Shown here: one piece after another, positions 20,004 to 31,916 of the stretch
Numbering within the stretch: position 1 is the stretch's first letter
How the letters are laid out: the number at the start of each line of letters is the position of its first letter
Origin: a virus
DNA length: 64,000 bases
Direction: 5' to 3' (one strand)
IMG/VR virus record: IMGVR_UViG_3300026078_000018
Made by a program: the position numbers and the translations under genes
Notes under the pieces: model-generated
What the model was told of the DNA's origin: nothing
Seen by the model: only the letters and a program-made list of their open reading frames with translations
Databases searched by the model: none

Positions 20004-21332
20004 ATGCCCACACCCTGGAAGCTGCCGCATGCCCACCCCGCCGTCCCCGGCGGAGGCCGCGTGCTCACCCCCGCCGACCGCGAGTTCCACCAGTTCTCGC
20101 ACCCCGGCGTGTGGGGCGCCCTGGCCGACGAGAGCATGCACAACCCGTTCCGCGACTTCGACTTCGAGGACCGCGGCCGGGACAGCGCAGACGACGAAGA
20201 CCGGATCTACCACGGCTGGGACCACGCCGCCGACGCTGACCCCGGGTACGTGAAGGATTTTCACGAACGCTACGCCCACCACGTCGGCAAGGCGCACCCC
20301 GCCATGGCGATCCCGAGCAGCGTGGTCCCCCAGATCATGAAAGAGGGGCGGATCAAGAGCCAGTTCGAGACCGGCGCCTCCGAGGGCGAATATGACCCCG
20401 AAGGCCGCGCCGAGGTCGAACACCACCAGTTCGGCTACCCCGAGGACCACCCCGAGCACGCACGCCCCATCTACGGCTACCTGTCCGGCAACCCGTTCAC
20501 CGACTCCTCCGGCGCCGGATACGGCCACACCACCTTCGTCCTGCACAAGCCCCACGTGTGGCACCGCACCACGTTCTCCGGCGGCGACTCCTGGGGCAGC
20601 ATGGGGCAGATCTCCCCGGCATCGGTGAACGACTACACCGCCGACCCCCACAGCTTCCGCCACGCCGTCCCGGTCAACCACCTCGGCTTCGACAACGAGG
20701 AAGCCCACCGGCTCGCCGGGCACTCCCTGGCCCGCCGCATGGAAGAGCACCCAGCCGCAGCGCGCGCCGACACGTTCTGGCGCAACACCGACCGCGACCG
20801 CGACTACTTCCCCTACCCCGAGGCGCAGTACCACGGCGGCGTCGGCCTGCACGCCGTCCGCTACGCCATCGTCCGCTCTGCCGACACCGGCGGCGACCCC
20901 CACTCCATGTCCTCCAGCTCCCGCGAGGCCACCCGCGCACTCACCGCCGCCGGGATCCCCTGGGTCCACACCGTCGGCTACCGCAAGCCCACCACCCGCG
21001 ACCACGCGTTCATGAACGACGAGAAGCACCGCCCGCTGCCGCCGGAGATGCCCTACTCGATGCACCGCGGCGCCAACCTGCTCACCAATCTCGCCGGGCC
21101 CATCTTTGAGCCCCGCGTGCGCTACCAGAGGCCCGGCGGAGGCGGCTGGCTGCTCACCCACACCGACAAGCACCACGGCCAGACGATGGCGCGCGCCGCC
21201 GACCCCGAGTGGGGGTTCTCCGGCCAGGCGCCGCTGCACTCGTTCCTGGCCCGCGGCTACTGGGAGCACATGCCCGAGCCGCTGGATTCCCGCGACGTGC
21301 TGGCTGTGTGCCGCAGGGGGGCCAGCCGGTGA
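20004..21332 (+). CDS. DUF3626-like (putative ART-fold) protein with a C-terminal ARGYW domain, copy 1
   Basis: KSQFETG.S.G, RPIYGYL, YG...FVL, RTTFSGGDS, Y.EAQYHGGV. Ends ...HSFLARGYWE. Confidence 0.7.
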   Translation: MPTPWKLPHAHPAVPGGGRVLTPADREFHQFSHPGVWGALADESMHNPFRDFDFEDRGRDSADDEDRIYHGWDHAADADPGYVKDFHERYAHHVGKAHPAMAIPSSVVPQIMKEGRIKSQFETGASEGEYDPEGRAEVEHHQFGYPEDHPEHARPIYGYLSGNPFTDSSGAGYGHTTFVLHKPHVWHRTTFSGGDSWGSMGQISPASVNDYTADPHSFRHAVPVNHLGFDNEEAHRLAGHSLARRMEEHPAAARADTFWRNTDRDRDYFPYPEAQYHGGVGLHAVRYAIVRSADTGGDPHSMSSSSREATRALTAAGIPWVHTVGYRKPTTRDHAFMNDEKHRPLPPEMPYSMHRGANLLTNLAGPIFEPRVRYQRPGGGGWLLTHTDKHHGQTMARAADPEWGFSGQAPLHSFLARGYWEHMPEPLDSRDVLAVCRRGASR

Positions 21333-22528
21333 GCCGCTTCGACCCGGGCCCGGCGCCATCCCACGGCGTCCCTGACGTTCCCCACGGCCAGGTCATCACC
21401 CGCGCGCACCCGGCGTGGCACCGGCGCACCGACGACGAAGTGTGGGGCACTCTCGCAGAGACCCGCCACAACCCGTTCCACGACGCACTGAAGCCGCCGG
21501 TCGGTGACTGGGGCGACAGCACCAACGCGTATTTCTGGGACGGTATCCGCGAGCGCCACCCCGAGAAGTACCAGGCCGCCCAGCATGCGCTGCACCGCGC
21601 GGTGTCCGGCATGCACATCGCCGTGGCCGTGCCGTCGCTGGCCCTGCACGACATCGCCGACGAAGGCCGTCTGCGCTCGGCGTTCCATATCGGCGATGAC
21701 GAGCACTGGTCGGACAACCCCGACTACAAGGACATCCGCCGCCGAGGGGAGTTCGCACACTTCCGCTACCCGATGAAAGGCCACCCCGATCACGCACGGC
21801 CCATCTACGGGCACCTCACCTCCGACCCGTTCACCGATGCTTCCACCGAGCCCTACGGCCACCACACCCTGGTGCTGTCCCGCGCCGCCGTGGGCCACCG
21901 CACCACCTTCACCGGTGCCGACTCCCTAGACCAGGAGCACAAAGTCCGCGCCAGCCCGCTCACCGAGCCCGGCCTGCATTCGCTCAACCCGGCCACGCTC
22001 GACCCCCGAAAGCCGGACCTGGGGGTGTACAAGGCCGTCACCGACCGCAGCAAGTACAGCCCCTACATCGAGGCTCAGATCCACGGCGGTGTCGAGATCG
22101 GCCGCGATGTCCATCACGTGATTCTGCGCACTCCCGAGCATGAAAGCGAGCACGGCTGGGCCCACTCGACCGGCGAGCGCCTGGGGGTGCCGTGGATCCA
22201 CACCCGAGGTTTCAGCCGCCCGGACAGGGCCACCGCGTTCAGCGGCGTGCCCGCACACCGCCTCGGCGCGATCCTGGCCGCACATGCTGCCGTCGCCACC
22301 GGCGCGTTCGTCTCGGACTACCGCCCAGAGATCATCTGGCATCAGGGCCACGAGCGGTTCATCGTCGAGCTGGCCGCGCATGGCATGGGCCAGATCGCAG
22401 ACCTGGAGTGGGGTGCGCTGTATCCGCCGATGCCGATCGCCTCGATTCTGGCGCGCGGCTACTGGCAGCGCCTGCCGCATCCTGTCGACGCCGAGGACGT
22501 GCTGGCGAAGGTACGACCCGTCACGTGA
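21329..22528 (+). CDS. DUF3626-like protein with a C-terminal ARGYW domain, copy 2
   Basis: RPIYGHL, YG...LVL, RTTFTGADS, YIEAQIHGGV. Ends ...SILARGYWQ. GTGA overlap with copy 1. Confidence 0.7.
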   Translation: MSRFDPGPAPSHGVPDVPHGQVITRAHPAWHRRTDDEVWGTLAETRHNPFHDALKPPVGDWGDSTNAYFWDGIRERHPEKYQAAQHALHRAVSGMHIAVAVPSLALHDIADEGRLRSAFHIGDDEHWSDNPDYKDIRRRGEFAHFRYPMKGHPDHARPIYGHLTSDPFTDASTEPYGHHTLVLSRAAVGHRTTFTGADSLDQEHKVRASPLTEPGLHSLNPATLDPRKPDLGVYKAVTDRSKYSPYIEAQIHGGVEIGRDVHHVILRTPEHESEHGWAHSTGERLGVPWIHTRGFSRPDRATAFSGVPAHRLGAILAAHAAVATGAFVSDYRPEIIWHQGHERFIVELAAHGMGQIADLEWGALYPPMPIASILARGYWQRLPHPVDAEDVLAKVRPVT

Positions 22529-23608: not shown

Positions 23609-23638
23609 ATGACGGGTGATGTAGGGGGCTGCTACGGT
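23609..23638 (+). promoter_or_regulatory. promoter for the mini-arrays
   Basis: ATGACG-N18-TACGGT with a TGn extension. Predicted start near 23645, the first base of repeat 1. Confidence 0.55.
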
Positions 23639-23644
23639 TGAGCC

Positions 23645-23733
23645 GTCGGCCCCGCCTCGGCGGGGATGGCCCGCTGTACTGTCTGGCGGAAAATGGCCCA
23701 GAGCCGTTGGCCCCGCTTTGCGGGGATCGCAGC
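23645..23733 (+). CRISPR. type I-E-like mini-array A (repeat, 32-nt spacer, degenerate repeat)
   Basis: R1 23645-23673 GTCGGCCCCGCCTCGGCGGGGATGGCCCG (29 nt). Spacer 23674-23705 (32 nt). R2 from 23706, GTTGGCCCCGCTTTGCGGGGATCGCAGC. 61-bp period. Confidence 0.8.
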
Positions 23734-23734
23734 A

Positions 23735-23826
23735 CATCTCTCCACACAGGTGGAGGTGGACCCACGCCGGTCTGCGTGAGCGCATCCCTCGCTCGCGATG
23801 CTCTCCACACCCGTGGAGGTGTCCGG
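23735..23826 (+). CRISPR. type I-E-like mini-array B (second repeat family, 34-nt spacer)
   Basis: R3 23735-23763 CATCTCTCCACACAGGTGGAGGTGGACCC. Spacer 23764-23797. R4 23798-23826 ATGCTCTCCACACCCGTGGAGGTGTCCGG. Confidence 0.72.
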
Positions 23827-23827
23827 T

Positions 23828-23846
23828 TCAGGCCTACGGGGCCTGA
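23828..23846 (+). terminator. hairpin closing the mini-array transcript
   Basis: TCAGGCC-TACGG-GGCCTGA. Confidence 0.4.
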
Positions 23847-23969
23847 TAGGCTCACATCCGCCTCGTCCTGTACCTGGGGGTTCAGCGGCGAAGCGGCTCA
23901 TCAGGTTGCACGATGAACACCGCAGGCCCTGGTTAGACCTGCGGTGTTCTGCGTTGATAGGCTGCCGAC

Positions 23970-24100
23970 GCCGTAGTCGTCTAGTGGCCCAGGACGCCGC
24001 GTCGCAGGGGATCGAGGCCCCAGCCGGGGGCGCGCAGCCCGGCGAATCCCAAATGGCCCCCGGCCCGGAAACCCCGGTTCGAATCCGGGCACGGCAAGCA
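23970..24100 (+). ncRNA. tRNA-like RNA (Glu/Gln-type D arm) with a ~65-nt insert replacing the anticodon loop
   Basis: GCCGTAG-TC-GTCTAGTGGCCCAGGAC D arm. CCCGG-TTCGAAT-CCGGG T arm. CACGGC acceptor 3' strand. TAGACC-N18-TAGGCT promoter upstream. Confidence 0.6.
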
Positions 24101-24745: not shown

Positions 24746-25015
24746 ATGACTACAGCCGCACTGGCCGACGCCACCACATTCGACGTACCCCACAACCCCC
24801 GCATCCGCTACCGGCAGGGCGACAGCCGCTTCATCATCGAGCTGATGCGGCAGGCCGAGGACGGACTGCCCATGGGCCAGGTCGCAGACCTCGAATGGGG
24901 CCATCTGTTCGCCCCCATGCCGCTCGGCTCCATCCTGGCCCGCGGCTACTGGCAGGAGATGCCCGAGCCGATCGCCGCCATGGGAGTGCTGGCGGAGGTC
25001 AGGCCGGTCGGGTGA
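24746..25015 (+). CDS. stand-alone ARGYW-domain protein
   Basis: RFIIEL...MGQVADLEWGHLFAPMPLGSILARGYWQ...VLAEVRPV matches the C-termini of both DUF3626-like proteins. Confidence 0.75.
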   Translation: MTTAALADATTFDVPHNPRIRYRQGDSRFIIELMRQAEDGLPMGQVADLEWGHLFAPMPLGSILARGYWQEMPEPIAAMGVLAEVRPVG

Positions 25016-31748: not shown

Positions 31749-31824
31749 CTTCAACCGCGGGCAGACTGGCTGGCGCTTAGCACTCGGGGACGACCTCCAC
31801 GAACGTCTGGGAGAATGAAGCCAT

Positions 31825-31900
31825 CGCCGAGTAGCGCAGGCCGGTAGCGCGCCGGATCGTACGTCGGAGGTCGCAGGTTCAAATCCTGCCTCGGCGGCCC
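31825..31900 (+). tRNA. tRNA or pseudo-tRNA with an irregular anticodon arm (identity undetermined)
   Basis: Acceptor CGCCGAG/CTCGGCG, D stem GCGC/GCGC, T arm GCAGG-TTCAAAT-CCTGC. The anticodon arm is only 16 nt. Confidence 0.7.
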
Positions 31901-31916
31901 AGGAAGGGATCAAGCC

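Follow-up and report, generated by a model that had tools for sequence, protein, structure and literature searches.

A candidate two-unit Cracr cassette in a large actinophage, with guides resembling the cas-regulating RNAs of two type I-E lineages of Catenulispora

Introduction

[quoted passage not shown] Multiplexed viral guides that repress cas genes, including 16 two-spacer I-E arrays, have been described and tested (bioRxiv 10.1101/2024.10.29.618823). The 30 arrays of that preprint (Cracrs), 20 of them type I-E, are each aimed at one type, and candidates passed its filter if they matched a host CreR spacer at nine or more PAM-proximal positions. The Salmonella Cracr array has three repeat-like units, two spacers of 21–24 nt and two Salmonella loci as targets. 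Two other kinds of viral element are relevant: Racrs (PMC10651486), phage-encoded repeat mimics without cas genes that likely titrate Cas6/Cas7, and one-spacer, cas-less mini-arrays that borrow the host Cascade in conflicts between viruses (summarised in PMC10120712).

Here we describe a phage locus that, judged by its sequence relationships, is probably (at roughly 80%) a two-unit Cracr cassette, i.e. phage copies of host Cas-regulating guide RNAs. The locus lies in the window, the whole stretch of 64,000 nucleotides that was analysed. Like the Salmonella array it is a cas-less viral mini-array with guides homologous to host CreRs, PAM-flanked partial matches to cas promoters, multiple guides directed at variants of a single subtype and one repeat with a loop shortened by 1 nt. 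It differs in having two complete units (four repeats), two repeat families and full-length spacers, and in that its putative targets are Cascades only 27–37% identical and co-resident in one genome. The locus stands outside any CRISPR-cas locus, its repeats match a host repeat or a CreR repeat, and its two guides, both with type I-E targets, each match a cas promoter partially beside a PAM, with one or two seed mismatches. Catenulispora, the host genus, is not named in the main text of the Cracr preprint. The features of CreRs listed above recur here, with unit B directly homologous; in contrast to CreRs, however, the cassette is phage-encoded and far from cas genes, so that it would act in trans against the host. 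Racrs are solitary repeats, whereas here there are two repeat pairs, each with a guide that matches a host promoter site. Unlike the inter-virus mini-arrays, this one yielded no viral target, and its guides match host regulatory RNAs.

Results and Discussion

Array layout and genomic setting

The phage record (139.8 kb, IMG/VR, from a rhizosphere metagenome; 88% complete by CheckV) encodes a capsid protein that shares about 60% identity with its counterparts in cluster-C mycobacteriophages and Rhodococcus phage E3. The array lies in the space separating a collagen-like gene from a convergent HTH gene. A sequence-only reading had described four I-E repeat hairpins forming two one-spacer units, and this was confirmed by our own reading and by a repeat finder, which recovered both repeat pairs with spacings of 61 and 63 nt. 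The features expected of the I-E family are present: a 29-nt repeat, 6-bp stem, 4-nt loop, 8-nt tail and 61-nt period. All elements lie on the plus strand. R1 (23645–23673), a lineage-A repeat of 29 nt and the likely source of the 8-nt 5′ handle of guide A, shares its lead and stem exactly with the array repeat of the second I-E locus of C. pinistramenti NL8 (L237, lineage A). It is followed by spacer 1 (23674–23705, 32 nt), which its matches to an NL8 spacer and promoter site mark as a putative guide for an AAC-flanked cas8e/cas3 site of the lineage-A locus. R2 (23706–23733), recognised by sequence reading and a hairpin scan, is a degenerate lineage-A repeat of 28 nt with a 3-nt loop and degenerate tail that would supply the 3′ handle of guide A. 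One base separates it from R3 (23735–23763), a lineage-B I-E repeat with an 8-nt tail identical to that of two Catenulispora CreRs. Spacer 2 (23764–23797, 34 nt) is a homologue of the lineage-B CreR spacer and, from the ranks of its CreR and promoter-site matches, a putative guide for an AAG-flanked site upstream of cas8e. R4 (23798–23826), found in the same way as R2, is a lineage-B repeat with a degenerate tail and the likely 3′ handle of guide B.

The ends of the putative transcript are suggested by small motifs. By eye, a −35-like hexamer (23609–23614) and, at 18 nt, an extended −10 (23630–23638) form a putative promoter spanning 23609–23638. The proposal that a promoter points at the first base of R1 thus stands on these motifs, but a consensus scan calls none. 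A 7-bp hairpin 3′ of R4 (23828–23846) is a possible 3′ end, presumed to act as a terminator, although the terminator scan did not call it; host CreRs likewise have a hairpin 3′ of them. One predicted size had to be amended: guide A would be 60 nt rather than 61, because the R2 loop has only 3 nt. The degenerate tail of R2, earlier ascribed to a role confined to the 3′ end, fits the CreR pattern of degenerate ends.

Structure is concentrated at this site. A loose I-E hairpin pattern occurs seven times in the 139.8-kb genome, against about three per shuffle, and 4/7 of these fall within 190 nt at the array. The region also folds better than 200/200 shuffles (z = −3.6); Rfam has no family for it. 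The absence of cas genes, at first claimed for the window, was borne out for the whole record at its 88% completeness. Profile searches for Cas6e and Cas7 gave zero matches, and tblastn with 13 Cas proteins gave a single weak match, namely the antisense frame of the host CreR on unit B.

A 259-nt contig identical to 23653–23911 was found in a rhizosphere metatranscriptome of another study. It weakly supports the cassette, as such contigs show neither ends nor strand; most of the phage is covered at low depth in that run, and DNA content is possible. Exact-pattern scans detected neither a second cassette of this kind in IMG/VR or the JGI metagenomes nor an exact counterpart of unit B in IMG/VR or GTDB. 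The array is absent from related phages, whose capsids are about 80% identical, and seven near-complete relatives are without a matching one.

Several neighbouring elements were recorded in passing. Between the array and a tRNA-like element is a long imperfect hairpin (23896–23962, plus strand), inside which the RNA contig ends. The tRNA-like element itself (23968–24098, plus strand), just downstream of the array, has a D arm, a short anticodon stem, an insert of roughly 60 nt that is itself structured, a perfect T arm and a bulged acceptor stem, and escaped both ARAGORN and Rfam. Mycobacteriophage Gaia carries an unannotated element with this architecture close to its end (NC_026590.1, about 89760–89875), and the T arm also has a match in Nebkiss. 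A tRNA gene with an 8-nt anticodon loop and a reported four-base anticodon is located at 31824–31901 (plus strand). Two tandem DUF3626-like genes (20004–22528, plus strand) apparently have a C-terminal domain in common with a small gene across the array from them (24746–25015, plus strand).

Host assignment

The host of the phage is Catenulispora. The best matches of its endolysin (56–64%, six of them strong) fall in one family, represented by 31 Catenulisporaceae genomes. Exact protein matches identified Catenulispora acidiphila, C. pinistramenti NL8, C. sp. GP43 and Actinocrinis among them, and C. yoronensis was recognised by a named Cas2 on a contig with the same CreR. One of the six strong endolysin matches is in the unpublished genome G471, on which none of the conclusions depends. 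Moreover, five spacers in the lineage-B arrays of C. yoronensis and NL8 have matches of 27–30 bases in the phage, beside an AAG or AGG PAM: one from C. yoronensis (30/32, AAG) and four from NL8 (29/32 AAG, 29/32 AGG, 29/31 AAG and 27/31 AGG). Among 1,977 spacers of other actinomycetes the best match was 27/31, without a PAM. The sequences thus show this phage lineage to be under attack by the type I-E systems of Catenulispora. The exact strain was not found; since host seeds vary with their targets between strains, it is probably a relative that has yet to be sequenced. A spacer of another genome (G477, locus L235) matches the related phages L080, L087–L091 and L093 at 29–30/31 with an AAC PAM, and therefore the phage group covers more than one host lineage.

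Repeat families and the two Cascade lineages

Both stem types had been said to resemble actinobacterial I-E repeats, and both proved to be genuine ones. The B-type repeat is found in long arrays of Haloechinothrix, Actinopolyspora, Salinactinospora and Phytomonospora, and the A-type repeat adjoins I-E cas genes on Streptomyces plasmids. Matching repeats in hosts adjoin cas8e-cas11-cas7-cas5-cas6e. Between lineage-A and lineage-B loci, Cas6e is only 27–29% identical (tree split support 100/100) and Cas7 34–37% identical. The suggestion that each unit is tuned to a different host Cascade agrees with this, the repeats falling to two deeply split Cas6e lineages. Both lineages are co-resident in C. 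pinistramenti NL8, and likewise in Salinactinospora. An unrelated actinophage (IMGVR_UViG_2827231811_000003; L002, 6980–7130) carries a cas-less, one-spacer mini-array of B type with a promoter and hairpin, and its repeats have decayed in the same pattern as those of the present phage.

Unit B resembles the lineage-B CreR

C. yoronensis and GP43 each carry a one-spacer mini-array (CreR) between cas3 and cas8e, antisense and just upstream of cas8e, and sequence comparison indicates that unit B is homologous to it. The 8-nt tail of R3 is that of the first CreR repeat, and neighbouring host arrays are without it; the hairpin together with this tail occurs at only two sites in the 31 Catenulisporaceae genomes, both at a CreR. 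The R3 stem carries one compensatory change. Over its first 20 bases spacer 2 matches the CreR spacers of C. yoronensis (16/20) and GP43 (15/20), which rank 1 and 2 of 5,913 post-repeat segments. In the C. yoronensis comparison (10/12 and 16/20) the mismatch at position 4 breaks the run, so that the count of at least nine PAM-proximal matches is reached by number and not as a continuous stretch. Across the repeat and the first 20 spacer bases, unit B and the C. yoronensis CreR differ by transitions only, bar the first bases of the repeat. In the reverse direction, the host cas3-cas8e intergenic regions searched by BLAST against the phage genome found unit B as their best match (E = 1e-8 and 4e-8).

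The host guides have targets of their own. For the C. yoronensis CreR guide, an AAG-flanked seed match lies upstream of cas8e, some 180 nt beyond the CreR, and the guide of GP43 is paired with a covarying target site of its own. The same layout of CreR autoregulation, with an AAG PAM and covarying seeds, was seen at the lineage-B loci L241, L242, L245, L344, L347 and L348; six further cas loci have CreR-like elements with other seeds. Spacer 2 matches the AAG-flanked C. yoronensis promoter site (L242, 7979–8015, minus strand) at 15/20 non-flipped positions, with mismatches at positions 4 and 11, and this site ranks first of 15,758 AAN sites in 20 loci. When genomes were searched for exact PAM-plus-seed sites of spacer 2, there were 48 scattered matches, none on the cas contigs examined.

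This actinomycete I-E lineage commonly has CreR-like mini-arrays whose AAG-flanked seed targets lie upstream of cas genes, as noted at L142, L148, L008, L245, L342, L344, L347 and L348. In guide B (23756–23775) and in both host CreRs (L241, L242) spacer bases 6–12 are able to pair with the 5′ handle, and the changes between them preserve the pairing. In these fold models, the handle–spacer pairing may act as a built-in damper on the guide.

Unit A resembles a promoter-targeting spacer of the lineage-A locus

The counterpart of unit A was found in one genome, NL8, where a promoter-targeting spacer occurs twice in the old part of the array, followed by a degenerate repeat. This CreR-like spacer (L237, 17375 and 18051; G458:C112) thus sits inside the old end of an ordinary array and not in a separate mini-array. 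Its target is the 150-nt gap between the divergent cas8e and cas3, which it matches at 10/10 non-flipped seed positions beside an AAC PAM. Spacer 1 shares 11 of its first 12 bases with the NL8 spacer, the single mismatch at position 5 leaving at least nine matches by count and a broken run. The same position is the one mismatch among the first 11 non-flipped positions (10/11) at the AAC-flanked NL8 promoter site (L237, 11967). BLAST of the NL8 unit against the phage matches R1 plus spacer 1 (E = 1.5e-6), and the junction of spacer and R2 resembles that of the NL8 unit with a 1-nt offset. Exact PAM-plus-seed sites number only four in the 31 genomes, one being the cas8e/cas3 promoter region. When metagenomes were scanned for more CreRs of the spacer-1 kind, only chance matches appeared. 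On these similarities, in one genome, unit A appears homologous to the promoter-targeting spacer of the lineage-A locus.

Strength of the matches

When mock or shuffled spacers were compared with family spacers and promoter windows, p was 0.001–0.01 per guide for both the homologue and the promoter match, with windows chosen post hoc. The promoter matches alone over whole loci were not significant (p = 0.1–0.3 or worse). About 75 cas and array loci of other actinomycetes, which served as a negative control, yielded no score above that of shuffled spacers. What carries the argument is the joint pattern: each unit matches the regulatory guide of its own repeat family, and that guide targets its own cas promoter. 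Seed mismatches usually reduce Cascade binding, and among the sequenced promoters none is a perfect seed match to either guide.

Alternative explanations

These mismatches to every sequenced promoter are what would be expected if the units derive from host CreRs but now serve only as decoys, in the manner of Racrs, occupying Cas6e/Cas7 or whole Cascades, with promoter binding lost or irrelevant. We consider this unlikely, though it is the strongest of the alternatives. Host CreR seeds, however, change strain by strain with their targets, so that mismatches to non-cognate strains are expected. In the predicted folds of both phage guides the seed pairs with the 5′ handle, but the two host CreRs are predicted to have the same hairpin. 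Guide B has a second predicted internal hairpin, and the R2 loop is shortened, which also suit a decoy. However, the similarity to the host guides lies in the handle and the PAM-proximal bases and ends after position 12–20, that is, it covers the promoter-binding part. In published systems, moreover, pure titration de-represses cas genes and protects poorly.

It is very improbable that the units are ordinary viral mini-arrays directing the host Cascade-Cas3 at competing phages or plasmids. The full-length spacers (32 and 34 nt) suit such a role, and viral mini-arrays are often aimed at other viruses (PMC10120712). One IMG/VR contig (L181) does have 17 contiguous matches to spacer 1 beside an AAC PAM, but the site, in a gene of an unrelated phage-like contig, matches at only 23/32 overall and is at chance level for a database of that size. 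Neither spacer has a convincing protospacer in INPHARED, PLSDB, IMG/VR or 31 related phage records, a search that partly covers Catenulispora elements. The statement that the window holds no protospacer extends to the whole phage genome, where the best self-matches are 20/32 and 22/34. Plasmid matches of spacer 2 (Agrobacterium imuA and a Streptomyces DUF6153 gene) were discarded, being without PAM and seed. Homology of both units to host regulatory guides would be unexpected for weapons against mobile elements, and this reading is largely refuted.

Least probable of all is a neutral, decaying remnant of recombined host DNA: absence of the cassette from related phage records, including the seven near-complete relatives, would suit it, but two units from separate host loci have been joined precisely and without flanking host sequence, the stems are unbroken and include a compensatory change, handle and seed have been spared by divergence, and the cassette is bounded by a promoter-like motif and a hairpin of its own.

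Proposed function

A Cracr cassette thus remains the preferred reading. Three functions had initially been left open, namely attack on competing elements, silencing of host genes and decoy activity. Silencing, at cas promoters, is the one retained, with decoy activity as a by-product, whereas no target was found for attack on competing elements. In both lineages the host guide matches a PAM-flanked site upstream of its own cas genes by the seed only, and these are also the sites that the phage guides match. By analogy with tested CreRs and Cracrs, a single precursor would be cut by the Cas6e of each lineage into guides of about 60 and 63 nt, and each guide would load on its own Cascade. The guide-Cascade complex would then bind the cas promoter through about 11–20 bases, blocking transcription without triggering Cas3, and the guides would compete with immune crRNAs for Cascade. 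R2, with its 3-nt loop, may be poorly cut, as has been reported for a Salmonella Cracr repeat, and guide A could then have a longer 3′ end.

We advance more tentatively, at somewhat under even odds, the stronger proposal that one short transcript, cut by two Cas6e enzymes unrelated to each other, switches off two Cascades that reside in the same cell and are not interchangeable, using fused regulators from two host loci, one of them hidden in an ordinary array. The principle has already been published, and the locus would refine a known counter-defence rather than add one; the fusion of two repeat families is new. If true, the cassette would be a cross-lineage RNA anti-CRISPR, and RNA-guided silencing of cas promoters would extend to a large myovirus-like phage of filamentous actinomycetes. 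It would also close a loop, as anti-phage spacers and the regulators copied by the phage lie in the same host loci. Coverage of two lineages is not seen with the shared-repeat array that has been characterised to date; the present locus suggests that a 240-nt cassette may cover two Cascade lineages too distant for shared repeats.
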